From Candidatus Kapaibacterium sp. (GTDB lineage: Bacteria > Bacteroidota > Ignavibacteria > Kapaibacteriales > UBA2268), in the NCBI GenBank assembly GCA_963664875.1, contig OY761611.1, forward strand, positions 340,511 to 404,510: a stretch of 64,000 nt of DNA, in the 5' to 3' direction. Each line of letters begins with the position of its first letter. The stretch's first letter is position 1. The notes under the pieces are model-generated. The model worked only from the letters and a program-made list of their open reading frames with translations. It did no database searches and had not been told where the DNA came from. Both the position numbers and the translations under genes were made by a program. Below, one piece after another: positions 17,843-39,635 of this stretch.

Positions 17843-19801
17843 ATGAAAATTACTAAAATTATATCAGTATTGTCAGCATTTATGCTTGTTAGTTTAGGTG
17901 CTGTAACTCTTCATTCTGAAGAAAACGAAGTAAAGTTTGGTATATTTGGCGGCATTAATTTTAATATGCACAGTCCTGATTTCACGATGCCTTATAATAC
18001 AAATGGTATAAGCAATGTGTTTAATGAAAACAAAACAAGTATAGGTTTGCATTTAGGAGGTCTTATTGACTATGAACTCTCGCAAGGCTATGTTTTGTCA
18101 GGAAGATTAGGCTTCCATTCTGCTAGTGTATTATTTAAAGATAATAGATTGCTTACTTCTGAAATTGGAGCACCCGATACAAGTTTGGCAGGAGAATTAG
18201 ATGCTTCGATTTATTACCTCGAAATATCTCCTATGTTGAAATTCACAGAATTATTGCCTGTCGAAAATCTGTACTTATTGGGCGGAATCGAACTCGGTAT
18301 CCCGATTTCAGCAAAATATGATTTGACTAATAGTGTGAGCACTACAGCGGACGATTTGACTACATACTCCCAAACAAATCAAGATATCGATGGTAAATCT
18401 ATGAGATTGGCAATTGCTCTTGGTGCCGGATATGATTTTGAAATAGGTGATGGTGTTGAGTTGTCTCCTGAAGTATCATTTAGATTACCGCTAACGAAAG
18501 TGTCTTCAAATAATAATTTTGATTCTTGGTCTGTACCTCAGGTAAGAGTAGGCGTATCGCTTACTTTTGGAGGTAAATCCACGAAAGAACCAAATAAACC
18601 TGAGGCCGGTGAACTAAGTGTTGGATTCAACGACGTATCATATTACGATAAAGACGGAAACAAAAAGAAATTAAACGACATTTCTGTTGAAGAAACTGAA
18701 TATCAAGAGCTTTATCCTGTACTTCCTTATGTATTTTGCAGTGAAAATGAATCAATACCGGATAAAAGATACCAAACTATGGCTTCTCAGTCTGCTTCCG
18801 GAGAGTTTAGTTTCTCAGCATTAGAAGCTGACGCGATGACTATAAATATCAATACCTTAGATATTATCGGCAAAAGGATGCAGAATAACAAACAGGCAAG
18901 AGTTAGAATAAATGGTACTCTAGACGGTAAAAATGAAGTTGATTTAGAAGTAGCTAAGCAGAGAGCTGATTTTGCCAAAAACTATATTGTTGTGAATTAT
19001 GGTATCAATCCGGATAGAATAGATGTAACATCGAGCAAAAAACCTGAAAAATTGTCTGCATTAAGCAATCCTGACGGAGTTCAGGAAAACAGAAGAATTG
19101 AATTTTTCAGTTCAAATTCTGAGTTGTTAGAACCAATTATGCTTAGTAAAGATAAAAAACGTGTTGCTTTCCCGCAGCTTATCGAGTTTAACCCTGCTGT
19201 AGTCAGCAGTGCAGGTATCAAAAACTGGGAGTTAAGGGTAATGCAGGCAGGACGGATTGTTAAACAATTTGCAGGTACAGGTGTTCCTCAGCCAATCCAA
19301 TGGAATATAATGCCAAATGATTTGACAGATGCACAAGTGCCTCTTGATTATACTTTGGAAGTAATTGCAAACGATGGCATGGTAAAAACTTCATCTGGGA
19401 CTATTCCTGTTGAATACTATTCGTTTACAAGGAAAAGAACAGAAGATATGCCTGATAAAACAATTTCTAAATATAGTTTAGTTGTTTTTGACTTTGATTC
19501 TCCAAATATCTCAGAAGCAGATAAAAAAATCTTAGAAGATAAAGTTGTTCCTGCAATTACATATAATTCTACCGTACAGATTTACGGATATACTGACAAA
19601 CTTGGAAATGATTCATATAATAAGAAGTTAGCTTTAGAAAGAGCAAACAATGTCAAGAATTTCTTAGAAAGCAAAGTAAAAAATGTTAAATTTGAAGTCT
19701 ATGGAGTTGGAGAATCAGTTGAACTATTCAATAACAATTCTCCAATAGGAAGACAGCTGTCTCGAACAGTGCAAGTTTACGTTGTTACACCCAAAAAATA
19801 A
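17843..19801 (+). CDS. OmpA-family outer-membrane protein (N-terminal beta-barrel plus C-terminal OmpA peptidoglycan-binding domain)
   Basis: Signal peptide; C-terminal IYGYTDKLGNDSYNKKLALERANNVKNFL...VYGVGE OmpA_C motifs. Confidence 0.8.
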   Translation: MKITKIISVLSAFMLVSLGAVTLHSEENEVKFGIFGGINFNMHSPDFTMPYNTNGISNVFNENKTSIGLHLGGLIDYELSQGYVLSGRLGFHSASVLFKDNRLLTSEIGAPDTSLAGELDASIYYLEISPMLKFTELLPVENLYLLGGIELGIPISAKYDLTNSVSTTADDLTTYSQTNQDIDGKSMRLAIALGAGYDFEIGDGVELSPEVSFRLPLTKVSSNNNFDSWSVPQVRVGVSLTFGGKSTKEPNKPEAGELSVGFNDVSYYDKDGNKKKLNDISVEETEYQELYPVLPYVFCSENESIPDKRYQTMASQSASGEFSFSALEADAMTININTLDIIGKRMQNNKQARVRINGTLDGKNEVDLEVAKQRADFAKNYIVVNYGINPDRIDVTSSKKPEKLSALSNPDGVQENRRIEFFSSNSELLEPIMLSKDKKRVAFPQLIEFNPAVVSSAGIKNWELRVMQAGRIVKQFAGTGVPQPIQWNIMPNDLTDAQVPLDYTLEVIANDGMVKTSSGTIPVEYYSFTRKRTEDMPDKTISKYSLVVFDFDSPNISEADKKILEDKVVPAITYNSTVQIYGYTDKLGNDSYNKKLALERANNVKNFLESKVKNVKFEVYGVGESVELFNNNSPIGRQLSRTVQVYVVTPKK

Positions 19802-22174: not shown

Positions 22175-22783
22175 ATGAAAATTGGTATATATGGGGGAAG
22201 TTTTAATCCCATTCATAATGCACATATTCAAATGGCAAAATGTTTTTCAGAGCAAATGAAGCTCGACAAATGCATTTTTGTTCCTAATCGAATTTCTCCA
22301 TTCAAAACAGAAGAAAATGTCATAGAATCGATATTTCGCCTTGAAATGGTAAATATTGCAGTAGAAGGATTTGATAAGTTTGAAGTCTCAGATTTTGAAC
22401 TAACCAATTCGCAGGAAATATCATATACATACTTGACTCTTGAACATTATAGAAATATTTTCCCGAATGATGAGCTGTTTTTGCTAATCGGATTAGATAA
22501 TGCTGTTAATTTTGACAAATGGAAAAATTGGGAGCTTATACTCAATTATGTTTCTCTTTGTATAGTTGATAGACCGGAGATAGCAGACAAGGAAGGGAAA
22601 GAGAAAATAATAAAGGCTCTCTCAAATAAATCGAAAGAGCCTCATTGGGTCAGTGCACCACTAATGGAGATTTCATCATCTATAATACGCTCTAAAGTTG
22701 CAAAAGGTTTCAAAATAAATGAGCTTGTTCCAAAAAAAGTTGAAGAATATATTTACAAGCATAATTTATATTCTAATATTTAG
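22175..22783 (+). CDS. nadD: Nicotinate-nucleotide adenylyltransferase
   Basis: GIYGGSFNPIHNAH (H/TxGH nucleotidyltransferase motif) and NadD-like length. Confidence 0.85.
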   Translation: MKIGIYGGSFNPIHNAHIQMAKCFSEQMKLDKCIFVPNRISPFKTEENVIESIFRLEMVNIAVEGFDKFEVSDFELTNSQEISYTYLTLEHYRNIFPNDELFLLIGLDNAVNFDKWKNWELILNYVSLCIVDRPEIADKEGKEKIIKALSNKSKEPHWVSAPLMEISSSIIRSKVAKGFKINELVPKKVEEYIYKHNLYSNI

Positions 22784-23687
22784 AAACATTGTAGTCCGCA
22801 AGACCGCCTTCAATATTGATAATTATTACAGCCGTGCCGGAATTATCAGATTTGGAGTAGTAATAATTACCTTTATCTTCAAACCCGTCAAAATTGAAAG
22901 AACTCAATGCAGAATTTGTAAATATTTTACAATTTGATTCTTTTGGAATGCTAATATTTATATCTGAGACTCCGCTTTTGATATTTACTGTACAAGAATC
23001 AGACTGATTACCTAACACCAAATCAAAATCAGAAGCTCCCATGTTTAGGTTTAATGTTTTGACTGGAATATTTTTCAAATCAAAATCAGCATCACTTGCA
23101 CCAATGTTAAAATGCAAATCCCATTCTGTTTTATTATCCAACAAAATTTTGGCTTCGTTCGTAAAATTCAAATCTTTTAACTCTGTAACCTGGTCATAAG
23201 AAAAGTCAATAACCAGAGCAGAATCACTATTCACTGAGCTATTGCATTTAGAAGATTCAGTATAGGTTTTTGCTTTGAAGTACTTATTTTCAGAATCGAA
23301 ATCTGTTATTTCAAATGAGCCTGCTCCACCATTAAAGTTGAGTATTGCTTTCGAAATATCGGAATGCTTTTCAACAGAATAATAACTCTCAGTATTTACA
23401 GAAGATAATTTGTGTTCGACTTTTTCGGAAATTTCCTCGACAGCAGAAACACCTGAAGAGAAAATACGCATTACTATGAGTGCAAGGAAAACAGCAGAAA
23501 ATGATGCTAAAATTCTTTTCCACATCTCAGAGATGCTAAGCATAGAAATGCCAAATATTATCAAAAGTGCCGGCCAAAATAAGTTTGAGGATATATTAGA
23601 AAAATCTACAAATCCAAAATTTGATAAAAGGACTGAGATGCCTAAACTAATAAAAAATACACCCCAAAAAAGAGAAGAGGTTTTCAT
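22773..23687 (-). CDS. LiaF-like / DUF4097-type membrane-anchored stress-response protein
   Basis: Two N-terminal TM helices followed by a Ser/Asn/Asp-rich repetitive beta-rich C-terminal domain; ATGA-coupled to the upstream PspC-domain gene. Confidence 0.5.
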   Translation of the reverse strand: MKTSSLFWGVFFISLGISVLLSNFGFVDFSNISSNLFWPALLIIFGISMLSISEMWKRILASFSAVFLALIVMRIFSSGVSAVEEISEKVEHKLSSVNTESYYSVEKHSDISKAILNFNGGAGSFEITDFDSENKYFKAKTYTESSKCNSSVNSDSALVIDFSYDQVTELKDLNFTNEAKILLDNKTEWDLHFNIGASDADFDLKNIPVKTLNLNMGASDFDLVLGNQSDSCTVNIKSGVSDINISIPKESNCKIFTNSALSSFNFDGFEDKGNYYYSKSDNSGTAVIIINIEGGLADYNVSKY

Positions 23688-24079
23688 ATATTTCGTTCCC
23701 CAATTTGATTTTCAGATTTGATGTTCTTATACAGTAGAGCTGTTCCCAGACCAAGAAGGATTAGTGCAAAATAAATTTGTGAATCGATATCAGGAATTAT
23801 ATAGTCCAACAAAAACAAAACTCCTAAAGAAATGAGAATATACGCTAAAACATTTCTTGAATTGCGTGGAGTGCCTGAAATAACTTCTCTTCTGACTACA
23901 ACTCCGTAATCAGCTACAATCCATAACAAAATATATGCAATTATGCCTAAACCACCTGTAAATACTGCAAGAATGAACACTATTCTCACGAGGACTACAT
24001 CAATATTGAAATAGTCGGACAATCCGGAACAGACACCGGCAATCATTCTTTTCGGTCTGTTTCTAAAAAAACGTTCCAT
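23684..24079 (-). CDS. PspC-domain membrane protein
   Basis: RNRPKRMIAGVCSGLSDYFNIDVVLVRIVFILAVFTGGLGIIAYILLWIV is a canonical PspC domain. Confidence 0.8.
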   Translation of the reverse strand: MERFFRNRPKRMIAGVCSGLSDYFNIDVVLVRIVFILAVFTGGLGIIAYILLWIVADYGVVVRREVISGTPRNSRNVLAYILISLGVLFLLDYIIPDIDSQIYFALILLGLGTALLYKNIKSENQIGERNI

Positions 24080-24142: not shown

Positions 24143-27100
24143 TTATTTCAAAAATTTTACCATTGCACCATAATTTTTATCAACCTTAAACCCAATTTTT
24201 TTAAGGAAATCTTGAATTTCGAAGTGCGTTTTTACAACTTCTATATCTTTTTGTTTCAGTCTCTCAAAAAATACTTCAAGCATACTGCTTCCAAGTCCTA
24301 AACCTTTTAGTTCCTGTACTATAACAGTACCGTCAAGAAATACAGTGTTTTTATCTATCTCTTTGAAGCTCAAACCACCAACTAATCTATCATACTTGTC
24401 TTGCATCACATAGTATCTGTATCCTTCTCCGTATTTCATCGTGTAGTTTTCTTTATGGAATAATCTATAAAGTAAACCTATTTCAGAAGGTTTGAAAGTT
24501 TCATAAATGAAGTAATTATTCTTACCTGCATCTACAATTTTTGTCTTTATAGTATTGCCAAATATATTATCAGTATAGTCATAAGCTAACTGTTTTGGTA
24601 TCAATTGATAAGGAAATACCATTTTACTAAATACTAATTTGTCGTTTTTGTTAGTAAGATTAAATTGTAAGTCTGATAATTCATTTAGCTCTGTGACATC
24701 TGTATAATCTCTTAAGTCTATAATTTTCAACAGCCTGTCAAAGGCATTTCTTATTTCGATAGAATGATTTCGAAAATATGTGTGCCTGAAGAAGTAGTAT
24801 CTATTGTAATCAGAAACCTGATTAAGTTCATATTTGTCAAAAAATGTAAAAATAGTATCTATAGTTGCTTCAGGGGTAGCTGCATCATTAAGGAATTGCC
24901 AGTTAATAAAATTGTCAATTGCATTTGATAATATCATTGGAATAAAGCACTTAGGATAATCTTTAAGATACTTTTTCAATTCGTAGAGTAACTGATTTCT
25001 GCCATCAACAAAATCATATTTTTGAAAATCTGATTCAAGTTCTTTTAAGAAGTTAAGTCCCTCTTTTTCGCCTAATACTTCCATAATGGAATCAAAAATC
25101 CAATTCAAATCGAGGTGACCGGAAATCCAAGAATAATGAGATATAGTCTTTTTATAGAAATTTTTATAAAATGGCAAAATCAGAGAAATAGGAGAAGAGT
25201 AATAGACCCAGCCGTTTAGCGATAGCAGTCTGCCGGCATCCATATAGTCTTTATTGGGTAATATTACATTAGACATTGAAATGAACCCCGGAATTATTTT
25301 TTTTCCGCTATTTCTCCAGCCCATCAAAATAGATTTCATTGAGTACACAAATATTTTTTGTAATTGTGATAAATCCGCCTTCTTGTCAGCAGATAAAATC
25401 TCATTAGACAAAATTCTGATATGTCCCCAAGCTGTCAACTCATCATGGTAAATAACTGATCTTATACTCAATTCAGGGCGGGCACAACCTAATTTTGGCA
25501 AGACTTTAGAACCATAAGGATAAGACGAGATTATCATCAGCCAAAAAACTGTTTCCAGATTCCTACGCGATTTTAAATTTTCGTTGATAACTAATTGAAA
25601 ATCAAAACGTTCTCCATTTTTAGTATTGACACACATCCTAAAAATATTATTCTCGTGTGTGTGTGTTATATTTGAAATCCATATACCATACTCAGTTAAA
25701 TCATCAAGACAAAATTCATGCTTATCAAAAGCAAGCATTACTGATTGCTTCAAAAAAGTCGTAGTTGTCAAAATAGAAAACAGCTGAGATTTTGCTTTTT
25801 CGGGAACTCCATCGTCAAATGTAATTTTCTTTTTCCACTCATTTTTATCTTCTACTCGGAAAGCATTTTGGATTTTTTTCTCATAGTATTCCGAAACTTC
25901 AATAAAGTACTTATGAGCTATTTCAGATATTTTCTCATCGTCATCATGCATCATCCAATTTACCAATTCACTTCTGACCGGTTCGTAATAGTGTCCATAT
26001 TTTTTTACAAATTGCACAAGCAACCTGAAAATATTCTCAAACTGTTTCACTAAAAGTCTATTTACCGGCCATTTGAGTTGAGTTCGATAAATAAATAGCC
26101 TTTGTCTTAGGGTTTCTAATCTCCTTTTTTCAAATTTATGAGAGGTAATTTTAGCAATATATTCTTCATTGAGGAATGAAAAACCGGATTCCAAAAACGT
26201 GAAATACCCCGATGAGTGAAATGCGAAAGCATCATGAGTTAACAAAATCATATATGCTCGACACCTTATGTTTTCAATAGGGTGATACGCAAGTGATTCT
26301 AACCTAAGCTTGATGAGTTCTATTAAGTTAGAGTCTGTATTGCTTATTAGTAGCTCAATATTAGTAAGAGCAGTCTGATTGTCATTAGATTTATCTGCAA
26401 CAATCAAAGAATAATTTGCAATCAGCTCAGCAAGACCGGGAGATTTGAAGTTTTCGCTACTTGACTTACTGCTGTTTGATATAAGAGGTAGTTTTACTCT
26501 TTTATGGAAATATTTTAAATCAACTTCCCAAATTTCTTTGACAGGAGAAAAGTCTCGAAAAGGCTGATTCCCAGCCCAAAGCAATGGTTGTTTAGCAAGT
26601 ATATCAAAATCTAAATTATTTGTTTCATGCGTGTAAATCAGATTTCCGATTTGATAACAATTTTCATCTGTTTTTCTGCAAATCAGCTCTCTGTTATTTA
26701 CTCTGTCGTATATTGAGTTTTGACGTATGAGTATATCACTTTCTAAAATTCCGAGATCTCTGTAAAACCATCTTGGTATTCTTATATAAAAGCCCTGCAT
26801 CTTAAGATCAACAAAGTTTCGTTCATAACATGAATCTATAAGTGATTGATAATTCTTTAGAATAAGCTTTCTATTTAAAGTCTGCTTGGCAGTAATTTCT
26901 CCATTCTTTGCGTTAAAATCTTGTTCAAGTATTTTGAAATTGACTATTCGCTCATATTTTGCAAGTGATTTATTAGCTACCATAATCAACTTATGACAGT
27001 AGTCATGCAAATCTGATTTGGAGAGTCCGATTATTAGCTCGTCTTTAAAATCAGGAACAATAAAAAGAATATTATAAGGTTTTCCGTCGCCTACGAGAAA

Positions 27101-28684
27101 CACTCTTTTGATGCCGGGCACACCTTCGAACTTGCTTTCTACATTTCTCGGAGCAACAGTTTGTCCTTTGTTGTTTTTATAAATATCTTTTACTCTGTCG
27201 ATAATTTGGAAATGTCCTAATTTATCCTTGACAAAGATGTCACCAGTAGCAATATGGTAGTCATTTTCATTATTTTGAGGATACTCTATGACAGATTCAG
27301 GAGGAGCATCTTCCAAATATTTCGCCACATAATGTCCGGATATTGACATTTCGCCATTATCTGCAAGTTTCGGATAAATACCGGGAAGAGCTATTCCTGT
27401 AGAGTTTGCTACGTATTCGCCGGGAGGAGTCATTGTAATTCCACCCGTGGCTTCGGTCATTCCAAATCCGCTGGATAGTTTAATATTATATTTATTGAAA
27501 AACTTAAATACTTTTGGATCTAAATACCCGGCTGCAGATAGTCCCCATTTCAATTTTTTTCCAAGTACATTGCTTATTGCTTCTTCCGGAGCAATTCTAT
27601 GTTTGTCCATCATTAACATTATGTTGTCATAAGCTTGCTGCCAACGCAAAGGAATACTTATGAATATTGTCGGGTTTACAGTTGGGAATAATTTGAATAG
27701 AGTAGAGCCTGAAGGCGAACCTGTAAATGTATAAGTACCATTCCAATAGATGGTTCCCAAAAGTTCCAAATATCTGCCGAAAGTATGGAATAACGGCAAG
27801 TATGAGAGCATCACTTCTTTATCACCGATAAAGGGAACAGAAGCACCTCTGGCAAATCTTTTAGAGACAAGGGAATAATTGCTGAAAGAGATACCTTTGG
27901 GCTGACCGGTTGAGCCGGAAGTGAACATAACTGTTGACACTTCATTTGTATTGATAGATTCATATTTACTTATGCATTCTTCTATTTCATCAAGTGTAAG
28001 TTCTGAAGTAGCAACAGATAAATTGAGACAATTAAATAGTTCAACGTTGGAAAAAACTTTTGTAGTAAATATTTCAAGATTATTATTAATATCTTTTCTC
28101 AACTCATCAAGTAGTTTCAGTCTTTCTAATTTGTCAGTTACGGCTATATCAATTTGAAGCGTTTTAAAGATAGAGAGCAATTCGGATTTTGACGAATTTA
28201 TATTGATGGGAGTAACAAAGATTCCATGCATCAGGCAACTTAGATCAGTTAGGGCAGAGTACACACCATTATCACAAAATATTGCTACTCGTGGTCTTTT
28301 GCTTTTTTGTAAAAGTGCAGCGGCTATAGATCTGGTTAAATCATAAACTCTTTCATAAGAAAATTTTTGAGAAGGAGTAGCCCCCATATCCCTAAACAGA
28401 ATAGCATCCTTATTTCTATATAAACGTTGCTTAAACATATCAAGCAACGAATAATTAGATTTTTGTATTAGTTCGAAAGCACGTTCAGCCAATAAATATC
28501 TATCTTCTATATTTTGAACGTATTTAAGAAATGTTACACGAAATACTAAATCGAGCAATTCAAAGATTATATCAGCATCTTTGCCATGATATTCGAAATA
28601 GAATCGTTTTATAGTTTCGAAATGTTTTTTTAAATAACCATCGTAGTTTTTTGCTTCTTTCAAAATATCTCTAATGTCAGGCAT
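24143..28684 (-). CDS. Giant tripartite protein: AMP-forming acyl-CoA synthetase/adenylation (ANL) domain, ~700-aa unassigned middle region, C-terminal GNAT N-acyltransferase
   Basis: ANL motifs MFTSGSTGQPKG (A3), GFGMTEATGG (A5), ATGDIFVKD...IDRVKD (A7/A8). C-terminal GNAT motif A VIVQELKGLGLGSSML and ...FLKKIGFKV. 1513 aa, no signal peptide. Confidence 0.7.
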   Translation of the reverse strand: MPDIRDILKEAKNYDGYLKKHFETIKRFYFEYHGKDADIIFELLDLVFRVTFLKYVQNIEDRYLLAERAFELIQKSNYSLLDMFKQRLYRNKDAILFRDMGATPSQKFSYERVYDLTRSIAAALLQKSKRPRVAIFCDNGVYSALTDLSCLMHGIFVTPININSSKSELLSIFKTLQIDIAVTDKLERLKLLDELRKDINNNLEIFTTKVFSNVELFNCLNLSVATSELTLDEIEECISKYESINTNEVSTVMFTSGSTGQPKGISFSNYSLVSKRFARGASVPFIGDKEVMLSYLPLFHTFGRYLELLGTIYWNGTYTFTGSPSGSTLFKLFPTVNPTIFISIPLRWQQAYDNIMLMMDKHRIAPEEAISNVLGKKLKWGLSAAGYLDPKVFKFFNKYNIKLSSGFGMTEATGGITMTPPGEYVANSTGIALPGIYPKLADNGEMSISGHYVAKYLEDAPPESVIEYPQNNENDYHIATGDIFVKDKLGHFQIIDRVKDIYKNNKGQTVAPRNVESKFEGVPGIKRVFLVGDGKPYNILFIVPDFKDELIIGLSKSDLHDYCHKLIMVANKSLAKYERIVNFKILEQDFNAKNGEITAKQTLNRKLILKNYQSLIDSCYERNFVDLKMQGFYIRIPRWFYRDLGILESDILIRQNSIYDRVNNRELICRKTDENCYQIGNLIYTHETNNLDFDILAKQPLLWAGNQPFRDFSPVKEIWEVDLKYFHKRVKLPLISNSSKSSSENFKSPGLAELIANYSLIVADKSNDNQTALTNIELLISNTDSNLIELIKLRLESLAYHPIENIRCRAYMILLTHDAFAFHSSGYFTFLESGFSFLNEEYIAKITSHKFEKRRLETLRQRLFIYRTQLKWPVNRLLVKQFENIFRLLVQFVKKYGHYYEPVRSELVNWMMHDDDEKISEIAHKYFIEVSEYYEKKIQNAFRVEDKNEWKKKITFDDGVPEKAKSQLFSILTTTTFLKQSVMLAFDKHEFCLDDLTEYGIWISNITHTHENNIFRMCVNTKNGERFDFQLVINENLKSRRNLETVFWLMIISSYPYGSKVLPKLGCARPELSIRSVIYHDELTAWGHIRILSNEILSADKKADLSQLQKIFVYSMKSILMGWRNSGKKIIPGFISMSNVILPNKDYMDAGRLLSLNGWVYYSSPISLILPFYKNFYKKTISHYSWISGHLDLNWIFDSIMEVLGEKEGLNFLKELESDFQKYDFVDGRNQLLYELKKYLKDYPKCFIPMILSNAIDNFINWQFLNDAATPEATIDTIFTFFDKYELNQVSDYNRYYFFRHTYFRNHSIEIRNAFDRLLKIIDLRDYTDVTELNELSDLQFNLTNKNDKLVFSKMVFPYQLIPKQLAYDYTDNIFGNTIKTKIVDAGKNNYFIYETFKPSEIGLLYRLFHKENYTMKYGEGYRYYVMQDKYDRLVGGLSFKEIDKNTVFLDGTVIVQELKGLGLGSSMLEVFFERLKQKDIEVVKTHFEIQDFLKKIGFKVDKNYGAMVKFLK

Positions 28685-28727
28685 AAAAAATTCCTATGGT
28701 AGTTAGGAAATAAATACTTAGATTATA

Positions 28728-28747
28728 ATCGAGAAAAATGTCTCGAT
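28728..28747. promoter_or_regulatory. Inverted repeat ATCGAGA-n6-TCTCGAT in the divergent intergenic region
   Basis: 7-bp perfect IR located ~40 nt upstream of the 24143..28684 start and ~200 nt upstream of the divergent ACL-like genes; candidate operator. Confidence 0.3.
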
Positions 28748-28951
28748 ATAATTTACTAAGCAGTGTAAACTCTTATTGTAGATACTTATTTAGCCAGATA
28801 ATATTGCTAAACAGTTTTACGATTGCAATATAACAAAGCTATTAAATATCATAAATAATAAAATAAAGACTTTTCTAATATCTCGCAAACACAGAAATTA
28901 AAAATGTCCTTATGGGCAATAAATAAAAATCATAAAAATAAAGGTAATGTT

Positions 28952-30214
28952 ATGCAAATTTCCGGATTGAGATACGGCTCTCGTTTGCTAAATCTGGTTG
29001 AATTTCCATACGCAGATTTTCTTACCGGTAGTTCTACTAAAGAAGAAATTCAATCTATGCTCGACAAAAACGGTAAGGTTGTTATCAAACCTCAGTTTTC
29101 AGGTGGAGTAGGCAAAAAAGGTAAAGCCGGTCTTGTAAAAATAGTTGATAACATTCATGATGCTTTCAGAGCAAAAGAGCAACTTTACTTTGCTGAACAT
29201 ACACACGGAAATAAAACTATAAGAGCAAATGGCGTAACTTTCGAAGAGTTTATCCCTTCGGAAGTTGAGTTATATTTTTCAATAACTAATTCCACTATAG
29301 AGAGAAAGCCAATTTTCACAATCACACCGAATGGTGGTGTTGATATAGAAGATTTGCCGGCAGAAAAGAAAAACGTTACTTGGATAGATCCTCTTATTGG
29401 TATCAAATCTTTTGATATTACAAATGCTCTAAATGATTTGAACTGTCCTTTGGAATTTATTTCTCCTTTGGTACAATATCTACCAAAATTATGGGATTTG
29501 TACAGCAATTATGGTGTATCTACACTTGAAATAAATCCTATAAGAATGAAAAGGGTCGGATCCTCATATGTTCCTGTTGCGTGCGACCTCAAAGTTGCAT
29601 TCGATCAAGATAGCCCTGATTGGAAACGCGTCGAACTTCCAATGTCAATTTTTCAATCAGAAACTACTGAATTCGAATCTGAAATCAATAAATTGAGAAC
29701 ATATCAAGGGCAGAGCGACGTTGTTGAGCTTAATGCCAATGGTTCTATTATTCCGTTTATGTTTGGTGGTGGTGCTAACTCCGCTGCTACTGAAACTTTA
29801 GGCAGCCGTGCAATTTTCGCTTCAGATTTTGGTGGCAACCCACCTTATGAAAAAATGTATGAAATATCTAAAATCGTCTTCAAGCACTGGTTAGACAAAG
29901 CTAACACACTTTTGCTAATCGGAGGGAAGGCAAACAACACTGATATTTATGTAACATTCAAAGGCATTTTTGATGCACTCAGAGACCATATTGCAGAGCA
30001 TGGCAATAAGCCAATTTACACTGTAATTGGAAGAGGTGGTCCAAACCTTATACAAGGTATGTATTACGGTAAAGATATTTTAGATACTATGAAATTGCCT
30101 TATAAAATGTTCGGGTTTGATTCTTCTATGATACAGACTTTAGAATATGCCAAACGTATTGACGAATGGTGGGGCAAAGAAGGCAAGGCAGATTACATAA
30201 AAAAACATATGTAA
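28952..30214 (+). CDS. ATP-citrate lyase family, small (AclB/SucC-like, ATP-grasp) subunit
   Basis: Collinear with the succinyl-CoA synthetase beta / ACLY N-terminal module: VIKPQFSGGVGKKGKAGLVKIV, LEINPIRM, FMFGGGANSAATETLG, LLLIGGKANNTD. Start at MQISGLRY (28952); the track ORF starts at 28904. Confidence 0.7.
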   Translation: MQISGLRYGSRLLNLVEFPYADFLTGSSTKEEIQSMLDKNGKVVIKPQFSGGVGKKGKAGLVKIVDNIHDAFRAKEQLYFAEHTHGNKTIRANGVTFEEFIPSEVELYFSITNSTIERKPIFTITPNGGVDIEDLPAEKKNVTWIDPLIGIKSFDITNALNDLNCPLEFISPLVQYLPKLWDLYSNYGVSTLEINPIRMKRVGSSYVPVACDLKVAFDQDSPDWKRVELPMSIFQSETTEFESEINKLRTYQGQSDVVELNANGSIIPFMFGGGANSAATETLGSRAIFASDFGGNPPYEKMYEISKIVFKHWLDKANTLLLIGGKANNTDIYVTFKGIFDALRDHIAEHGNKPIYTVIGRGGPNLIQGMYYGKDILDTMKLPYKMFGFDSSMIQTLEYAKRIDEWWGKEGKADYIKKHM

Positions 30215-30256: not shown

Positions 30257-32980
30257 ATGACTCAATTGCAAACCAAACCCTTTCCATATTATGTAGGGGT
30301 TTACTCTCTCGAAGAATTAGTCAATAAAGACTCAAGAGTGTGTGTCATAAATATATTAGGCGGCGAAAGCCGAAAAGTTACTCCTGTTTCTCATGAATAT
30401 AGCAATGGCAATGTAGTTGCCGGTGTTCAATATGGCAGAAGAGGTGAATTAGAAACAAAAAAAGGTAATATACCTGTTTTCCGCTCTATCAGAGATGTAA
30501 TGGATAACGGAATTACATTTGATGTTGGTGTTATCTATTTACCTCCAAGTGCTGTAAGCCAAGCAGTAGCTGAATTAGTAAATTTCAATCCTGACTTGAA
30601 ACGCATAGTAATTGTTACAGAAAAAGTGTCTTCTTATGATTCTATGGCAATTCGTGTTATTTGCCAGGAAGCCGGTGTTGATGTGATTGGCTGTAACTGT
30701 TTGGGTGTTGCAAACGTTTGGGACCATGTTCGTGTTGGTGGAGCTCTTGGTGGTGACAAGCCGGAAGAAACATTGCGTCCGGGTTCTGTTGCAATTCACT
30801 CCAACTCAGGTAACTTCACAACTACCATATCAGAATATCTAAGAACTGCCGGATTTGGTATTTCAACTGCAGTTTCATCAGGTAAAGATGTATATATACA
30901 TTTTGCACTTCCTGAATTTTTGTTTGCCGCTCAGAATGATCCGCGTACTAAAGCAATAGCTCTGTATGTAGAGCCGGGTGGATATTATGAAAAACAAGCT
31001 TTGGATTGGATAGAAGAAAGAAGATTTGCTTTCAATAAACCTATTGTTGTTTGCGTAACCGGAAGATGGAAAAAAGATTTGCAAAGATCTTGCGGACACG
31101 CTGGAGCTCTCGCAGGTGGCGGTGACGATGCAATAAGTAAAGAGCAATGGTTTGATGATTACTTTGGCGTGGGTGTCTTTGATCCTGAAAATCCTGTAGT
31201 AAGCAAACGTGGTGTTCGTATTGCTTCTATTCAAGATTTTCCTAAGGCAATGCACGCAGTGTATGCTAAGATTGATGAAAAACCTGACTTCGATGCAACA
31301 GGTGACTTGTCTTTGAAATTATGGATAAGTGACAACGTAGTAAAAGTTCCAAAAGAATTAGATTTACAAGTTGTTCAGGCAATTGAACCATATAACAAAC
31401 AGATTCTTGAACAGAACAAACAAATAGGTGCGAATTATCTAAGACAGAGCATGGCTGATAAATCAGGTGCTTCCCGTATGGATAAGAAAACTCAGGTAGC
31501 ACATCTACATGGAAAATCTATATTAGATTTGTCTAAATATTCTATAGAAGAGAATTTGTACTTCTCGTTGGCTAAAATTTTGCCTGATCAAGATGATGTT
31601 AATTCAATAAATATTCTCTTAAATCTCTTTTTGCAGGTAGAATCACATCAAATAGCTAATCTACAATATGCAAAAGGAAATGATTGTACGCCAAATGCAT
31701 TTATGGCTTCTCAGTTAGCTGCTATTAGTAATAAACCACTACTTGCAAATATTGCTAATTATAGCGCTATGCTAATAGATGTAATAAGAGAAAACGGTAT
31801 AGATACTAATACTAAAGATTTAGGTTCTTTGCTCAATAACTTTATAGAAGAAAAGATACTTACAGATGATGCTTTAGAAAATGAAGCTGCTGATATTTTA
31901 GAAAAAGAGATTTTGAAATCTAAAAAGCAATGTATTTCCCTCAATGTCATTCAGCATATATTGAAATATGCAGCAGATAAAAAGAAAAATATCAGAAACA
32001 AGTACGAGTTTTTATTATCTGGCATGTCGCTATGTATCTTCTGGAAGCCTATGTTAGAAAAACGTATTACCAGAGATGTAGCTGAAAATGCACTCAGTTA
32101 TTTTTATAGTGTTGCACAATTAGTTGCTTTTTCGGTTACTGATGCCGACAGCAATAAAATGTGGAAAGAACTGACTGCCGGCAAAATCAAAAATATTACT
32201 AATAGTTTCACAGATAATGTATTTAAGATACTTTTCAACAGAGTACCAAAACCTGAAGAGTTGACCGAATTGAAATATCTTGTTGGACTCACTTTGACAA
32301 ATGGTCCGGGTACTATCTCTGCAAAGGGAGCAAAAGAAACAGTATCTGCAAGAAACTATATTCCAACTGCTTACGTAGGATTTTTAGTTAATACAGGTCT
32401 TGCTCATGGTGGTAATGGTTTCGAAGCTGTAGAGTTTTTGTTAAACAATTTCAAAGATTCTGATCTTAAGAATCCGGGCGATAAAAACCATGAAATTGAT
32501 TTAGCTACTATAGCAAAAAATGCTGCTAAAGAATACAGAAAATTCAAAAAACTCGAAAAAGAAAGTGGAAAAATGAACTACGCAAAAATCCCTTGCGTTA
32601 ATCATCCTGTTTTCAAAGGTAATGATGTAAATATTGATCCTCGCGAAGATTTCGTAAGAAAAGAACTCGAACAATCAAATATTTATAACATTTTCTTGGA
32701 TTTCTACCACAAACTTGTTGTTGAGTTATTCAATGAAGGTGCAACTAAAAACGTATTCTGTGTCAATGTTGATGCAGTTATTTCAGTCATTGCACTCAAA
32801 CTTGTTTGGAATGATTTACAAAAAGGAACACTTTCCAAAAAACAAGTCCAGGATCTTGTATTTATTTTATTCCTAATTGGTAGAGCTGTGGGTGTATCTG
32901 CGGAAATAGCAGACCACAGGGATCGTGGTCAGGATATGGACTGTAGAACTCCACAATCAGCACTGGGATTTGTACTGTAA
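30257..32980 (+). CDS. ATP-citrate lyase family, large subunit (SucD-like CoA-binding domain with phospho-His, plus citrate-synthase/citryl-CoA-lyase-like C-terminal domain), with ~250-300 extra residues between the modules
   Basis: CoA-binding/SucD-like N-terminus with SCGHAGALAGGGDD (active His loop, cf. GHAGA). C-terminal part matches the ACLY citryl-CoA-lyase module by eye: LTLTNGPGTISAKGA, CVNHPVFKGNDVNIDPRED, FCVNVDAVISV, FLIGRAVGVSAEIADHRDRG. Confidence 0.7.
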   Translation: MTQLQTKPFPYYVGVYSLEELVNKDSRVCVINILGGESRKVTPVSHEYSNGNVVAGVQYGRRGELETKKGNIPVFRSIRDVMDNGITFDVGVIYLPPSAVSQAVAELVNFNPDLKRIVIVTEKVSSYDSMAIRVICQEAGVDVIGCNCLGVANVWDHVRVGGALGGDKPEETLRPGSVAIHSNSGNFTTTISEYLRTAGFGISTAVSSGKDVYIHFALPEFLFAAQNDPRTKAIALYVEPGGYYEKQALDWIEERRFAFNKPIVVCVTGRWKKDLQRSCGHAGALAGGGDDAISKEQWFDDYFGVGVFDPENPVVSKRGVRIASIQDFPKAMHAVYAKIDEKPDFDATGDLSLKLWISDNVVKVPKELDLQVVQAIEPYNKQILEQNKQIGANYLRQSMADKSGASRMDKKTQVAHLHGKSILDLSKYSIEENLYFSLAKILPDQDDVNSINILLNLFLQVESHQIANLQYAKGNDCTPNAFMASQLAAISNKPLLANIANYSAMLIDVIRENGIDTNTKDLGSLLNNFIEEKILTDDALENEAADILEKEILKSKKQCISLNVIQHILKYAADKKKNIRNKYEFLLSGMSLCIFWKPMLEKRITRDVAENALSYFYSVAQLVAFSVTDADSNKMWKELTAGKIKNITNSFTDNVFKILFNRVPKPEELTELKYLVGLTLTNGPGTISAKGAKETVSARNYIPTAYVGFLVNTGLAHGGNGFEAVEFLLNNFKDSDLKNPGDKNHEIDLATIAKNAAKEYRKFKKLEKESGKMNYAKIPCVNHPVFKGNDVNIDPREDFVRKELEQSNIYNIFLDFYHKLVVELFNEGATKNVFCVNVDAVISVIALKLVWNDLQKGTLSKKQVQDLVFILFLIGRAVGVSAEIADHRDRGQDMDCRTPQSALGFVL

Positions 32981-33071: not shown

Positions 33072-34385
33072 TTATCTTTTTATTCTGATTGCTTTTACCG
33101 GCCAATCTACATTCTCATCTGTAACTTCATATATTTCAATGACTCCTTTGTCTTTCAAAATATTTACAAGAGCATAAGTTGGACCTGTTGCATAACCTTT
33201 GTTAGCCAAAATTCTGGTAACAAATGATCTGAGACCAAGATATTGGAAATTATCACTATTAGCTGTAATAGTTTCAGACTTATCCAATTCTTTTAACAAT
33301 TGTTCTTCAGTGATAATCCTGTCGCCTTCGTTGCTGTCGTCGTTCATAGACTGATTAAGATTGATTTTGCCTAATACTTTCAATCCTATACGAGATTCTG
33401 TATTCAATTCACCTAATTTAAAATCAGAACCTTCGAAAGCCTCTATCGTTGCTTCTCGTATAGCTTCCTGTTCTGTTATGCTAAATCTAAATTCGTCGAT
33501 TCCTGACTCAGCATTGCTGATAATCAGCATTAAATCATGGTGGAGTTCTTCTGCAGTTCTTAGTTCGTCAATAGAAAAATAGATATTATGAGCAACTTTA
33601 TTTCTAATAGAGAATAATTCCCGCCATTTTTTTTCAAATTGCTTATCCTGAAATGCTGTTTTGAAAAACTTATTATAGTTTGTTTGCAAATCATTTTTCA
33701 ATTTGAATAAGTCTTCCGGGGAGGAAGCAAGCATTATTTTATTTACTATGCTCTCTTGCTTATTAAATCCTGCTACATGTTTGTAAATAACTTCTCCTAA
33801 GTCATTAAAATCTATGAGAGAAACATCTAAATCAACAAATCCGGAAAAGAGATTTTCGTTTTCTTTTCTAACTTTAATTTTATCAATGAGTTGCTTAGGA
33901 AAGTTAGTGTTCCACCAATTAACTCCGATTTTGAGGGTAAAAAATTTGACTATATATCTTCTCAGAGCATTTTCAACTTCATTTACAAGTGGGTAAATAT
34001 CAACGGCAATTTTTGCAGAAACATCGTCTTTTAAAATTTTCAAATTAGAGAAAGATAGTTTTGCTTTTAAATGTTTTATTAGCTTAAATCTAAATTTTTC
34101 CAATTGCTCAAAGTTTGAGCTCCAAACATTTAGTAAAAAAGCTGAGTCAATCAAATCATTTAATGTATTGCTTGTATCAACGGATTGTATAATCACATCA
34201 ATTCCGGTCCCTTTGTCGTGAATTCTAAACTGTTTTTTTGCATAATTAGATTGATCTTCGGGTGTTTCCCATAAAGATTCCATAAATAAAAGACCGTGTA
34301 CCATGGAGCTCTCAGTTGAAATTTCAGCATTACCATATTTATCAATTGCCAGAATTTCAAAGTTTAAAGGGATGTCGTTATTCAT
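33072..34385 (-). CDS. Hypothetical protein with Rx4H HEPN-like motif (possible Abi/defence-associated RNase)
   Basis: No TM/signal; motif ELFSIRNKVAHNIYF fits the HEPN Rx4-6H signature as in Abi_2/Swt1-type HEPN domains; the rest is unassigned. Orphan gene bracketed by a terminator and a promoter region. Confidence 0.4.
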   Translation of the reverse strand: MNNDIPLNFEILAIDKYGNAEISTESSMVHGLLFMESLWETPEDQSNYAKKQFRIHDKGTGIDVIIQSVDTSNTLNDLIDSAFLLNVWSSNFEQLEKFRFKLIKHLKAKLSFSNLKILKDDVSAKIAVDIYPLVNEVENALRRYIVKFFTLKIGVNWWNTNFPKQLIDKIKVRKENENLFSGFVDLDVSLIDFNDLGEVIYKHVAGFNKQESIVNKIMLASSPEDLFKLKNDLQTNYNKFFKTAFQDKQFEKKWRELFSIRNKVAHNIYFSIDELRTAEELHHDLMLIISNAESGIDEFRFSITEQEAIREATIEAFEGSDFKLGELNTESRIGLKVLGKINLNQSMNDDSNEGDRIITEEQLLKELDKSETITANSDNFQYLGLRSFVTRILANKGYATGPTYALVNILKDKGVIEIYEVTDENVDWPVKAIRIKR

Positions 34386-37500: not shown

Positions 37501-37799
37501 AAAATGTTCAAAATCTCGAAGAAATTGGCAATGATGCTTTAAGTGGATTGATTAACGAACTGGAACTAAAGCATTTAGCTAATGCAGAAAGGTTAAGTAA
37601 AGTGCTGAAGATAGGTGCTGTTCAAGAATTTGCAGATGAACTAAGTCAATTAGCTGAAAAATATCAGGCACAGTTTTTAAATATTTTTGCTGAAGATTTG
37701 AAACATAGGGCAAATACACTTGATCTATTGGGCATTAGAGAAAAGTTAGCAGAGTTGCCAGAAATTAGCGGTAAACTGAAAGAGCAAATATCAGGCTAA
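34578..37799 (+). CDS. Hybrid sensor histidine kinase/response regulator with periplasmic TPR ectodomain (signal/TPR - TM - PAS-like - HisKA - HATPase - REC - C-terminal HPt-like)
   Basis: Signal peptide, TPR pairs, coiled coil, TM (LLILGLLSFGLIALVLY), H-box FLANMSHEIRTPMN, HATPase boxes, receiver (VVDDN...LMDLKMPIIDG). Confidence 0.85.
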   Translation: MRNRYFISLLLFFLSSIYAYSKEADTLSGSQSKEIIEEHIISNPKSIIQEVLRNTESVESLSLQKKIILAKAFYYNNQNSQSKRLLKNILDSSSVGNPVNLEAKHFLASVFYRENDLKNALKFALESKDKITNENMKAESNNTLGCIYYQLKDYNSALEYFKAAALIQKQKNDFKGLSITYNNMGSLYYEIENYSKAIEFLDYAYLLKTKYANLEDLISTVNNLIVVYRDAGLSEKAFEYQNKLIDLKDSLFTQRQSKKKEMMQSVIDSTTTLISEAMQQMQKLESEKKESLQQALKHKEKSEINESALEDLELDYILNLQQMKDKEIELLKQDNQIKELALTQQQDSILLQSKANRLLMMENQKKQLELMNQKNIITLADKERKLMEQQKAAKERYMLLLILGLLSFGLIALVLYTKFKHNQKINKLLGEKNYELSETNKKLKESQYFLKESNTRFSTIFHSSPIPSTLTVFPSGLFLDANQAFLNLFSIDRSDLEGVSLKDVPLWENPLQREELIATLSNRKKVEGVEMDLKDLKGNVLHTLVFSEVIEINNAPRILTVIQNITDRKKAEHALQSAKEAADSANRLKSEFLANMSHEIRTPMNSILGFSDLLKNRITTPQEKEYAEAIISSGKNLLVLINDILDLSKIEAGRLELIYDSTNLKELGNEIKQLFSIKCLQKDIDFSYNYNSELPESFILDETRVRQVLVNLVGNAVKFTSTGGVYLNISGEYAIQKGRMNLIVSVKDTGIGIPKEQQNQVFEAFHQQKGQSNRIFGGTGLGLSISKKLIEMMGGKISLISEEQSGSEFIFTIPNVEISKVVQRKSNSFEDFPFANYQFEDQSILVVDDNELNRILLKEYVRDTGLIVYEAGNGDDAIKMTAKMNPNLVLMDLKMPIIDGFDATKTIKRDENIKHIPIVALTASAMKSDEMKISETGFDDYLRKPVNKNDLYKVLLAFLKYKELESDNTNEFEVENVQNLEEIGNDALSGLINELELKHLANAERLSKVLKIGAVQEFADELSQLAEKYQAQFLNIFAEDLKHRANTLDLLGIREKLAELPEISGKLKEQISG

Positions 37800-39635
37800 T
37801 TTTTTAAAAGATATTATCTTTAAAAGTTTTACAAGTTCTTCCTCAAATTCCTTATTATTACCAGGCAAAGGGTTTATCAGAGTAACCGAACCGCTTTTAT
37901 TATACCAAATATCAAATACTAATTCTAAACTGCTTTTACCAAAGGTGTATCTTTCGCATGCAGGAAGATGTTTTATTTTGTGAACTGAGTAGTCTTGGGT
38001 TATGCAGTGTTTTACTGCATAGTATATATTTATCAATGCGTTATCTGATTCTTCTAAATCTTTGTGCAGATCTTCAGTTTCGCTATAATCAAGAAAAGAC
38101 TCTTTTATTTGATAGTTTGTTTCTTTCTGCACTCCATATTCTAATTGTGTACCCGGCAGTAGCGTAGGAGCATTGAAAGCAAATAGAGTCGAAGATGCTC
38201 TCGTTATAGCTGTATAAACCCATCTAAAATATGCCTCATGACTATATCCGTTAACTGATGTAAAATCGACAAAGACATTTTGCCATTCACCGCCCTGAGC
38301 CTTATGACAGGTAATTGCATAAGCGTACTTGACTCGCAGGCAGTTGAAATAGGGATCAACTTTAATGAAATCTATAAACTTTTTGCTTCCGGGTTTTAGC
38401 TGAGGAAATCTGGATTTAAAATCGTAGTATAAAGCTAACTTTTCCTCATAGCTCATATCTCGTTCCAATGAATCTAAAATTGGTTCGTAAATTTTACATT
38501 CTAATATCTTTTCTCTTCCGTTTTCATCAGTAAATTCAAGTAATACATCTCGAAATATAAGATTGACTTTTTTTACACCGCTGTAGGTATAGATTGGAAT
38601 TGACTTAGATTCAGTATAAAGTGAAACCTTCAAGACTTTTCCAATTTCTCCATTCATCAAATCTATATCTCCATAGTAAACGTTATTTAAAACGATAACT
38701 CTGTCATCTTCTCCTATGGTATTCCTATTCGGAAAGAAGTGGTTTCTTATTCGATTATTATACTCTTTAACCATTTTATTGGAGTAAGCTATAATCATTA
38801 CATCGTCAGATATTTCGTGCTGGGAAACTTCAAGATAAGTACCAAGGAATGTCTCTTTTGTAAGGACACGTATGTCTTTTCTGTTGTCCAATATTTCTAA
38901 CTTATCGAAATCTTTATTTATTATGGCATTCCTTACGGAAGTTGCAGTTTCAAGCAGCGCAGAGTCTTCTTTTTGTCTTACCACATCTGTTAATTCTGAG
39001 GTATTTGCTTCTAAGAAGAAATGTTCTTTTAAGTAATCTGAATTTAATGCAGGAGATAAAAGATTTTTGACAGGAGGGAGCTGTGCCGGATCACCAACAA
39101 AAATAATTTTATTGCTATATCCTATATACTGCAACAAATCATTCAAAAGCGACCCCGAACCAAAGGACATAAGCTCATTACCAAGTGAAATGTCAGGTAT
39201 CATTGAGGCTTCATCAATTATGTATAAAGCTTCTCTTGTGATATTTCGTCTTATTTCAAAATAATATCGCAAAGAATCTAATGAATCAGTTCCGGCAGAT
39301 GATTCTTTAACAAAACCAACTTGATAAATACTTCTGTGTATTGTGGAAGCTTTATAGCCTGTCTTTTCACTAATCACTCTTGCAGCTTTTCCTGTAGGTG
39401 CCATAAAAATAGTCTCTATTCCTAGAGCATCTAAGTAATCGGCAATACCTTTCAGTAGAAAAGTTTTGCCTGTGCCGGCATAACCTCTCAGAATAAAAAC
39501 TTGTTTTGGACTTTCCAAAAAATTGGTAATTTCTTCTACCGCAGCAGATTGGGAAGGAGTAAGCTTAAATTTATATGTTTCTTGTAGTGTTAGCATAGGT
39601 CTTACTAAAATAGACAAAATTATTGAGTGTCTCAA
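37791..39635 (-). CDS. SF1B DNA helicase, RecD/Pif1/TraA-like, with ~130-aa C-terminal extension
   Basis: Walker A GYAGTGKTF, Walker B IIDEASM, FVGDPAQLPPV, SH3-like insert, motif VI AYAITCHKAQGGEWQNVFV; 614 aa. Confidence 0.75.
   Translation of the reverse strand: MRHSIILSILVRPMLTLQETYKFKLTPSQSAAVEEITNFLESPKQVFILRGYAGTGKTFLLKGIADYLDALGIETIFMAPTGKAARVISEKTGYKASTIHRSIYQVGFVKESSAGTDSLDSLRYYFEIRRNITREALYIIDEASMIPDISLGNELMSFGSGSLLNDLLQYIGYSNKIIFVGDPAQLPPVKNLLSPALNSDYLKEHFFLEANTSELTDVVRQKEDSALLETATSVRNAIINKDFDKLEILDNRKDIRVLTKETFLGTYLEVSQHEISDDVMIIAYSNKMVKEYNNRIRNHFFPNRNTIGEDDRVIVLNNVYYGDIDLMNGEIGKVLKVSLYTESKSIPIYTYSGVKKVNLIFRDVLLEFTDENGREKILECKIYEPILDSLERDMSYEEKLALYYDFKSRFPQLKPGSKKFIDFIKVDPYFNCLRVKYAYAITCHKAQGGEWQNVFVDFTSVNGYSHEAYFRWVYTAITRASSTLFAFNAPTLLPGTQLEYGVQKETNYQIKESFLDYSETEDLHKDLEESDNALINIYYAVKHCITQDYSVHKIKHLPACERYTFGKSSLELVFDIWYNKSGSVTLINPLPGNNKEFEEELVKLLKIISFKKLA

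Follow-up and report, generated by a model that had tools for sequence, protein, structure and literature searches.

A stretch of 64,000 nucleotides from Candidatus Kapaibacterium sp. (contig OY761611.1, positions 340,511 to 404,510; hereafter the window) encodes a protein of 1513 amino acid (AA) residues, in which an AMP-forming acyl-CoA synthetase domain of the ANL superfamily is joined to a C-terminal GNAT acyltransferase domain by a middle region with a predicted protein-kinase-like fold. The three parts obligately co-occur, the middle region is found in no other architecture, and the genes encoding such proteins display a statistical, multi-lineage neighbourhood link to enzymes that convert acetyl-CoA plus oxaloacetate to citrate or the reverse. 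We tentatively propose that the protein unites an acyl-CoA synthetase with a Pat/AcuA-like acyltransferase that regulates it, and that it acts at the acetyl-CoA/citrate node.

Integrity and architecture of the ANL-GNAT fusion

An earlier reading of the letters (the original prediction) had described a single 1513-AA polypeptide at 24143-28684, which was confirmed by translation of the window and by its list of open reading frames (ORFs). The interval is occupied on the minus strand by one uninterrupted ORF with an ATG start, comprising 1513 codons and a stop codon; read on the plus strand, its translation is full of stop codons. All of the motifs quoted in that prediction were located in the ORF, namely TSGSTGQPKG (AA 255-264), GFGMTEATGG (AA 406-415), ATGDIF (AA 479-484) and IDRVKD (AA 495-500), with QELKGLGLGSSML and FLKKIGFKV both lying within the final ~60 residues. 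Scanning the locus for promoters and terminators gave nothing better than shuffled sequence.

That two or three genes were joined by an assembly or sequencing error, a concern raised together with the prediction, has practically no chance of being correct. The suspicion would draw on a second public assembly of the same genome, whose 1.8-Mb contig ena:ERZ21862665:ctg8777l differs by one base, with four A residues in the run where the window has five (position 28364, codon ~107), and because of this 1-nt shorter run the gene is split there into two calls of 115 and 1362 AA. However, hundreds of full-length homologues from independent assemblies and several phyla all align with the frame of the window. 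The error sits in the other assembly, where it splits the gene and does not fuse genes; the public record probably contains a long-read homopolymer error here. In addition, the indel falls at residue ~107 inside the ANL domain, away from any domain junction. With the full-length architecture kept across independent assemblies and phyla (>100 full-length homologues), an artificial fusion of two or three genes is ruled out, and the fusion is genuine.

The predicted N-terminal AMP-forming ANL domain and C-terminal GNAT domain were both recovered in Pfam with scores above cutoff. The former is matched by AMP-binding (PF00501, AA 87-446, 148.4 bits against a cutoff of 29.9) and by the ACSL-type C-lobe AMP-binding_C_3 (PF23562, AA 506-622, 47.3 bits against 20.8), and the latter marginally by Acetyltransf_1 (PF00583, AA 1419-1499, 23.3 bits against 20.7). 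The PF00501 score above the gathering threshold, together with the presence of TSGSTGQPKG, GFGMTEATGG, TGD and DRVKDIYK, places the N-terminal part in the ANL superfamily. Across 36 diverse family members, the invariant positions cluster in the ANL catalytic motifs, which are the best-conserved part of the protein. Motifs A3, A5, A7 and A8 are invariant or nearly so, including the invariant T255, P262, K263, E411, T413, G414, G415, T480, D482 and K499, and in the C-lobe R605 is invariant and K600, the putative A10 catalytic lysine as judged from the alignment, is nearly invariant.

Within this superfamily, NCBIfam placed the ANL part closest to FadD11, long-chain fatty-acid-CoA ligases and the adenylation domain of carboxylic acid reductase (CAR). 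The best model, FadD11, scored 116.7 bits against a cutoff of 950, and all 25 listed models were far under cutoff, so a FadD11 or long-chain ligase function cannot be assumed. A sequence search of PDB found the closest solved ANL structures only at E~1e-17. No Acs or PrpE model was among the 25 best NCBIfam matches, and no Acs was found among the PDB sequence matches at E<=1e-10. The A4 motif, LPLFHTFGR..E, resembles LPLAHxFER..E of ACSL enzymes. The best NCBIfam and PDB matches and the AMP-binding_C_3 C-lobe are thus shared with COG1022/FadD11/ACSL proteins and the CAR adenylation domain, from which the present protein differs in about 890 extra C-terminal residues and in scores far under the equivalog cutoffs.

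At the other end of the chain, the GNAT fold is complete in an AlphaFold2 model (AA ~1365-1513) and motif A, R-x-x-G-x-(G/A/S), is retained in most of the 36 members. Fold, motif A and the PF00583 score above cutoff place this part in the GNAT superfamily, with the window copy being deviant in motif A. Precomputed Pfam annotations list no GNAT for the three closest relatives of the window protein; between the members of this clade, the GNAT part is as conserved as the remainder of the protein.

The middle region, in which the original prediction had recognised no motif, was indeed empty in domain searches: AA 623-1418 gave zero matches in Pfam and nothing by sequence in NCBIfam, in phmmer against PDB or in profile searches against PDB. 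AlphaFold2 predictions of the middle and C-terminal parts, made with a 42-sequence alignment, gave a mean predicted local distance difference test (pLDDT) of 85 and a predicted template modelling score (pTM) of 0.75 for AA 621-1513, and 89.3 and 0.87, respectively, for AA 741-1365. The predicted order is a beta-rich domain (~623-745), an all-helical solenoid (~749-986), an alpha/beta bilobal domain (~990-1190) and a helical bundle (to ~1362), followed by a linker and the GNAT domain. Foldseek against PDB aligned the middle region with the helical plus kinase module of VPS34/PI3K, with Bud32/PRPK, RIO2 and several eukaryotic protein kinases, and with a phosphotransferase, and the C-terminus with Gcn5 and serotonin N-acetyltransferase; VPS34, Bud32 and RIO2 support the bilobal kinase fold, and the solenoid is paired together with the kinase-like domain to the PI3K/VPS34 module. 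Weak Pfam HEAT matches to the solenoid were found in divergent homologues. According to these models, helical repeats flank a protein-kinase-like fold in the middle region.

A linker or a duplicated ANL C-lobe, either of which had been considered for this region, is ruled out by the confident models, in which a beta domain, a HEAT-like solenoid, a kinase-like fold and a helical bundle are predicted instead. A substrate- or carrier-binding scaffold had also been suggested. No carrier domain was found: Pfam gave no match to a phosphopantetheine carrier (PP-binding), and no four-helix carrier domain follows directly after the ANL domain in the models. The best conserved part outside the ANL domain is the beta domain, with P637, W639, G680, Y684, W703 and N706; in the helical bundle, W1262 and T1302 are invariant.

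Kinase motifs were mapped by placing the family alignment on the predicted secondary structure, not by superposition. None of the glycine-rich loop, beta3 Lys, HRD Asp and DFG Asp is conserved in the family alignments. The third N-lobe strand has the consensus HYDLQL and lacks a conserved lysine, a mostly conserved R1016 lies in the preceding strand, the HRD-equivalent position, which precedes the conserved Asn by five residues, has Phe in the window protein and varies elsewhere, and the DFG-equivalent position is occupied by a variable residue across the family. The domain instead carries a family signature of its own, SPxN(V/I)xVPxxD(Y/F)xxGxR, whose D1146 could serve as a metal ligand. Even with members at 21-25% identity included, G1066 remains invariant and D1146 and W1123 nearly so, and N1139 is mostly conserved. 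The lack of conserved canonical catalytic motifs gives the domain the appearance of a pseudokinase or of an atypical nucleotide/ligand binder, as far as alignment and model can suggest.

It is very improbable that this domain is instead an active atypical kinase or ATPase (Bud32-, RIO- or APH-like), which would phosphorylate a metabolite or a neighbour such as isocitrate dehydrogenase (IDH) in the fashion of AceK and endow the protein with three chemistries. The near-invariance of D1146, the mostly conserved N1139, the basic R1016 in an N-lobe beta strand and the presence of IDH directly downstream at many Bacteroidales loci are in keeping with such an activity, but the canonical motifs listed above are not conserved, the DFG position is variable, and a profile of the kinase-like region found no kinase among PDB sequences. 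The spacing between N1139 and D1146 also amounts to 7 residues, against roughly 13 in canonical kinases. Neither AceK-type kinase nor AceK-type regulatory domains were found in the 1513-AA protein. Unlike Bud32/PRPK, RIO and APH/choline-kinase-like proteins, with which it shares 6-14% identity, this domain does not conserve the canonical nucleotide-binding and catalytic motifs and is set between helical repeats in a larger enzyme.

A word-indexed search of 5.8 billion proteins returned >2600 matches to the protein, the best 120 of which are nearly all 1505-1575 AA in length, with 96-100% query coverage and 40-43% identity. Scanning one genome per species identified relatives in at least 488 species. 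The best 80 of these are all metagenome-assembled genomes (MAGs), labelled as Kapaibacterium/Kapabacteria, Chlorobiota, Ignavibacteria, Zixiibacteriota, Bacteroidales/Bacteroidota, Aminicenantes/Acidobacteriota, Krumholzibacteriota and Fibrobacteraceae, together with a few bins that carry other labels. Full-length relatives span 1470-1710 AA. When AA 741-1365 were used as a phmmer query against 1.84 billion representatives, 234 clusters were matched at E<=1e-3, 164 at <=1e-10 and 87 at <=1e-30, and in the long matches the middle region essentially always lies at residues ~780-1400 of 1470-1710-AA proteins. All three parts are retained down to 21-25% identity, and AMP-binding, AMP-binding_C_3 and GNAT were present in all six of the most divergent members checked (21-24% identity).

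Two short matches that appeared to be natural split versions, with the ANL domain apart from the middle region plus GNAT, proved to be a contig-edge fragment and a frameshifted long-read contig, and an apparent 2051-AA variant in locus L115 is an ORF-calling artefact in high-GC DNA. The names of the relatives in databases are generic only, 'GNAT family N-acetyltransferase' or, in JGI, 'long-chain acyl-CoA synthetase'. The family is widespread but lacks a known function. No description of an ANL-middle-GNAT architecture was found in full-text literature searches. Bacterial GNAT lysine acetyltransferases have been reviewed as five types, none of which contains an AMP-forming synthetase or a kinase-like domain (PMC6456759, PMC8556138), in agreement with the view of the original prediction that no such protein had been characterised.

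Gene-neighbourhood link to citrate enzymes

Gene neighbourhoods were compared in 81 genome loci and in an independent set of 80 metagenome loci, in which ORFs within 8-kb flanks were called and clustered (on average, the flanks of a locus hold 7.7 ORFs). In 80 species-representative loci, the families that ranked next after the target and the promiscuous response-regulator/histidine-kinase superfamily were IDH (15), citrate synthase (14), aconitase (13) and the two subunits of ATP-citrate lyase (ACL; 7 and 6). Their identities were confirmed by Pfam and NCBIfam, and the citrate synthases, which are of two different types, score above equivalog or subfamily cutoffs. One of these citrate-node enzymes was present within 8 kb at 27 of the 81 genome loci and 33 of the 80 metagenome loci (60/161), and directly adjacent at 22 and 27 of them, respectively (49/161), compared with a chance expectation that we estimate, for a ~3500-gene genome, at about 2% of loci for the flanks and well under 1% for adjacency. 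Once the target proteins were clustered, the link was seen in 10 of 41 lineage clusters at 60% identity and in 20 of 66 at 70%.

At least eight gene arrangements were observed, which differ between lineages. ACL genes are divergent upstream in the clade of the window and convergent downstream in L009 (L numbers denote individual loci). Citrate synthase is divergent upstream in L011, L025, L085 and L101, convergent downstream in L112 and L118, and co-directional upstream in L063, L106 and L122. Many Bacteroidales display the order citrate synthase <- aconitase <- divergent to target -> IDH, and L077, L145 and L160 have target -> IDH alone. Citrate synthase was also found nearby in four of nine fetched contigs of members at only 21-25% identity, being divergent at 108 nt, co-directional 45 nt upstream, convergent 16 nt downstream and one gene away, respectively.

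In the window itself, the divergent neighbours are an unusual pair of ACL-like subunits, which none of the NCBIfam ACL models match; the best matches are succinyl-CoA ligase subunits, far below cutoff. The pair may be a divergent ACL or an enzyme of the citryl-CoA synthetase/lyase type. The other recurrent neighbours across the loci are mixed and confined to single lineages (transporters, envelope proteins and glycosyltransferases), leaving the gene otherwise solitary, as expected of a self-contained multidomain system.

The original prediction had offered two kinds of logic, that of N-acyl-amino-acid or lipoamino-acid synthases and that of acyl-CoA-synthetase-linked protein acylation. The former gained no support from gene context, in which citrate synthase, aconitase, IDH and ACL are the partners that recur, and this citrate-node context favours the latter. 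It is decidedly unlikely that the protein is a small-molecule N-acyl synthase, in which the ANL-activated acid would be moved by the GNAT domain to an amino acid or amine, such as 2-oxoglutarate-derived glutamate. An ANL domain nearest to long-chain/FadD11-type ligases, together with the JGI name, would suit such a synthase, the presence of donor-making and donor-using domains in one chain fits substrate channelling, and the oxidative branch of the tricarboxylic acid (TCA) cycle (citrate synthase, aconitase and IDH) leads to the glutamate precursor. Yet the GNAT part is matched in Pfam only by generic models (PF00583, PF14542, PF13508 and PF13673) and by none of the N-acyl-amino-acid-synthase or OlsB-GlsB-type families, the 1513-AA protein lacks any hydrophobic stretch of membrane-spanning length, no lipid, export/transporter or amino-acid biosynthesis partners recur across the loci, and about 740 conserved scaffold and kinase-like residues would be left without a role.

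Protein acylation could alternatively be directed at the neighbours. In this scenario, which we consider unlikely, the GNAT domain would acylate citrate synthase, ACL or IDH in trans, with the ANL domain making the donor locally and the HEAT/kinase-like part docking the target. The same gene-context evidence applies here as for a self-regulating synthetase, and citrate synthase and ACL have a citrate-synthase-fold domain as their common denominator. HEAT solenoids and pseudokinases are typical protein-docking modules, which counts for such a role. The nearest structures of the GNAT domain are the protein acetyltransferases Naa40, Gcn5 and Naa50/80; moreover, isocitrate dehydrogenase of M. tuberculosis is acetylated by a GNAT (PMC6456759). 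On the other hand, acetyl-CoA is abundant, so that the need for a covalently attached catalytic ANL domain is left unexplained, the acceptor is not predictable from similarity of GNAT folds, and a citrate-node neighbour is absent at most loci.

A comparable gene pairing is known from the 2-methylcitrate pathway, in which the ANL synthetase gene prpE stands beside the citrate-synthase-family gene prpC and PrpE is under Pat-dependent acylation of its catalytic lysine. The present loci differ from prpE-prpC, given that the neighbours are bona fide citrate synthases by score, that they occur with aconitase and IDH in Bacteroidales and that the ANL domain is not PrpE-like; no PrpB or PrpD was seen among the neighbours.

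Two further sets of neighbours were observed. In two very divergent members (L168:4904-5763 and L170:8089-8532), citrate synthase and the target have small genes with CBS and CoA_binding_2 domains next to them, an arrangement that recalls AcuB, a CBS protein of the Bacillus acu system. These small genes are not recurrent among the other 161 loci. In the window, a PspC-domain gene (23684-24079, minus strand) and a LiaF/DUF4097-like gene (22773-23687, minus strand), both of envelope-stress type, follow 63 nt downstream of the target on the same strand. This synteny is kept only within the Kapaibacterium clade at 75% identity and is therefore probably unrelated to the function of the enzyme.

Proposed function and comparison with known systems

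The best established relationship between ANL and GNAT proteins is a regulatory one, and by Rosetta-stone logic a covalently fused ligase-regulator pair is thus favoured. PrpE and mycobacterial FadDs are further targets of GNAT acylation. AMP-forming CoA ligases are classic targets of GNAT lysine acetyltransferases: in Acs and other ligases of this type, the catalytic lysine is acylated by Pat, AcuA, KatA and MtPat (PMC8556138, PMC4053389, PMC11619455).

We envisage a soluble, self-contained enzyme, in which the ANL and GNAT domains would be tied together by the beta domain, the HEAT-like solenoid and a catalytically degenerate kinase-like fold. The ANL domain, with its catalytic motifs intact in the sequence, would adenylate a carboxylic acid and form the acyl-CoA. 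The GNAT domain would then bind acyl-CoA and acylate a lysine, the likeliest target being K600 of the ANL domain, either in cis or within an oligomer, and this acylation would switch the synthetase off when acyl-CoA accumulates. The pseudokinase and the HEAT module may serve as a scaffold or ligand sensor that sets GNAT activity, a part played in known bacterial lysine acetyltransferases by NDP-forming synthetase-like, cAMP, ACT or NADP domains. Physiologically, the protein would both provide and control acyl-CoA at the acetyl-CoA/citrate node, coordinated with citrate synthase or ACL. The link to this node is shown by gene context, and the direction of the role is what we infer.

Several findings weigh against this proposal. 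About 60-65% of the loci have no citrate-node neighbour, and no deacylase of the sirtuin or AcuC type recurs near the gene in the loci compared. In the clade of the window, motif A of the GNAT domain reads LKGLGLGSS, with Leu replacing Arg/Gln, and acyl-CoA binding may be altered as judged from this substitution. The chief reservation is that the ANL domain resembles ligases of the fatty-acid type (FadD11/long-chain or CAR-type enzymes), unlike Acs or PrpE, and its A5 motif, FGMTE, has Gly at the position of the acetate-gating Trp of Acs; a reading in which acetate is converted to acetyl-CoA for citrate synthase is therefore not favoured. Finally, the conserved D1146 and the mostly conserved N1139 leave room for real nucleotide chemistry, which a regulated synthetase does not need.

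Among known systems, Pat, to which the original prediction had compared the protein, is an apt analogy. Pat/YfiQ/PatZ are bacterial GNAT lysine acetyltransferases of types I and II. These enzymes likewise combine a large N-terminal acyl-CoA-synthetase-related domain with one small C-terminal GNAT, and their function is tied to acyl-CoA synthetases and the acetyl-CoA level (PMC6456759, PMC8556138). However, the synthetase-related domain of Pat is of the NDP-forming type (succinyl-CoA-ligase superfamily) and catalytically dead, whereas the AMP-forming ANL domain here has all catalytic motifs intact; Pat also lacks a kinase-like or HEAT module, and no Pat-type domain (CoA_binding, ATP-grasp or Succ_CoA_lig/CoA-ligase) was matched by Pfam at E<=1 in the 1513-AA protein. 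Another parallel is AcsA-AcuA of Bacillus subtilis, an AMP-forming ligase paired with a GNAT in a stable inhibitory complex (PMC11255334). The Acs/Pat, PrpE/Pat and FadD/MtPat pairs are alike in that the catalytic lysine of an AMP-forming CoA ligase is acylated by a GNAT. By analogy, the 1513-AA fusion could be a covalent version of the AcsA-AcuA-type pairing. In contrast to the fusion, AcsA-AcuA and similar pairs consist of separate polypeptides without the ~740-AA scaffold, and contain Acs-type ligases in place of the ACSL/FadD11-like one found here. The protein belongs to the ANL and GNAT superfamilies, with a protein-kinase-like fold, and stands outside Pat/YfiQ, Acs/PrpE, AceK and the N-acyl-amino-acid synthases.

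A bolder version of the proposal, about which we are rather doubtful, would place the family in a class of bacterial metabolic regulators not recognised before, in effect a 'type VI' multidomain GNAT, in which the active synthetase, the pseudokinase/HEAT sensor and the acyltransferase form one machine that acylates itself as well as citrate synthase or ACL. If this were true, such a machine would sense the state of acid, ATP and CoA and gate the entry or exit of TCA-cycle carbon in FCB-group bacteria and Acidobacteriota.

GNAT lysine acylation of acyl-CoA synthetases is a paradigm of bacterial metabolic regulation, and every described case uses separate proteins. If our proposal is correct, the present protein would be a natural covalent ligase-acyltransferase pair and the first with a kinase-like fold as connecting module. 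Members of the family, which has a strong genomic link to citrate-making and citrate-cleaving enzymes, are found in hundreds of species, most of them uncultured, that are abundant in sediments, sludge and soils. Knowing what the protein does could show how acetyl-CoA flux is gated in these bacteria, would provide a compact model for communication between ANL and GNAT domains, and would replace the generic 'GNAT family N-acetyltransferase' annotation.

Feature coordinates and other genes of the window

Table 1 Domains of the 1513-AA protein and its divergent neighbours in the window (approximate boundaries are marked ~).
Feature	Coordinates	Strand
Complete ORF: ANL, beta domain, HEAT-like solenoid, kinase-like fold, helical bundle, GNAT	24143..28684	-
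N-terminal extension, AA 1-86, moderately conserved in the family, ahead of the Pfam AMP-binding match	28427..28684	-
ANL adenylate-forming domain, AA 87-622; N-lobe AA 87-446, AMP-binding_C_3 (ACSL/FadD11/CAR)-type C-lobe AA 506-622	26819..28426	-
K600 codon in (E/I)T(P/A)K motif; putative A10 catalytic lysine, candidate acylation site	26885..26887	-
Small beta-rich domain, AA 623-745	26450..26818	-
Alpha-helical HEAT-like solenoid, AA ~749-986	25727..26440	-
Protein-kinase-like fold, AA ~990-1190, boundaries approximate	25115..25717	-
C-terminal helical bundle, AA ~1191-1362, continuing the kinase-like C-lobe	24599..25114	-
GNAT acyltransferase domain, AA ~1365-1513, via low-confidence linker AA 1367-1377	24146..24592	-
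Intergenic region, 219 bp, between the ORF and the divergent ATP-citrate-lyase-like operon	28685..28903	
ATP-citrate-lyase beta-like subunit, divergent neighbour; ATP-grasp plus ACL citrate-binding domain	28904..30214	+
ATP-citrate-lyase alpha-like subunit, 907 AA; CoA-binding, CoA-ligase and weak partial citrate-synthase-like domain	30257..32980	+

Elsewhere in the window, a 437-AA HEPN (Swt1/HepT-like) protein (33072-34385, minus strand) and a 614-AA PIF1/UvrD-like helicase with a TBP-TOTE 'conflict system' domain (37791-39635, minus strand) flank a large TPR-PAS hybrid histidine kinase, and this stretch could be a small defence island. Two outer-membrane proteins of ~650 AA with C-terminal OmpA domains are encoded at 17843-19801 (plus strand) and 43329-45263 (minus strand), the former also having an N-terminal beta-barrel match. 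Several proteins sorted by the type IX secretion system (T9SS; Por_Secre_tail), a type III glutamine synthetase and LptD_2 are encoded as well, and together with the OmpA proteins they are consistent with an FCB-group (Kapabacteria-like) genome.

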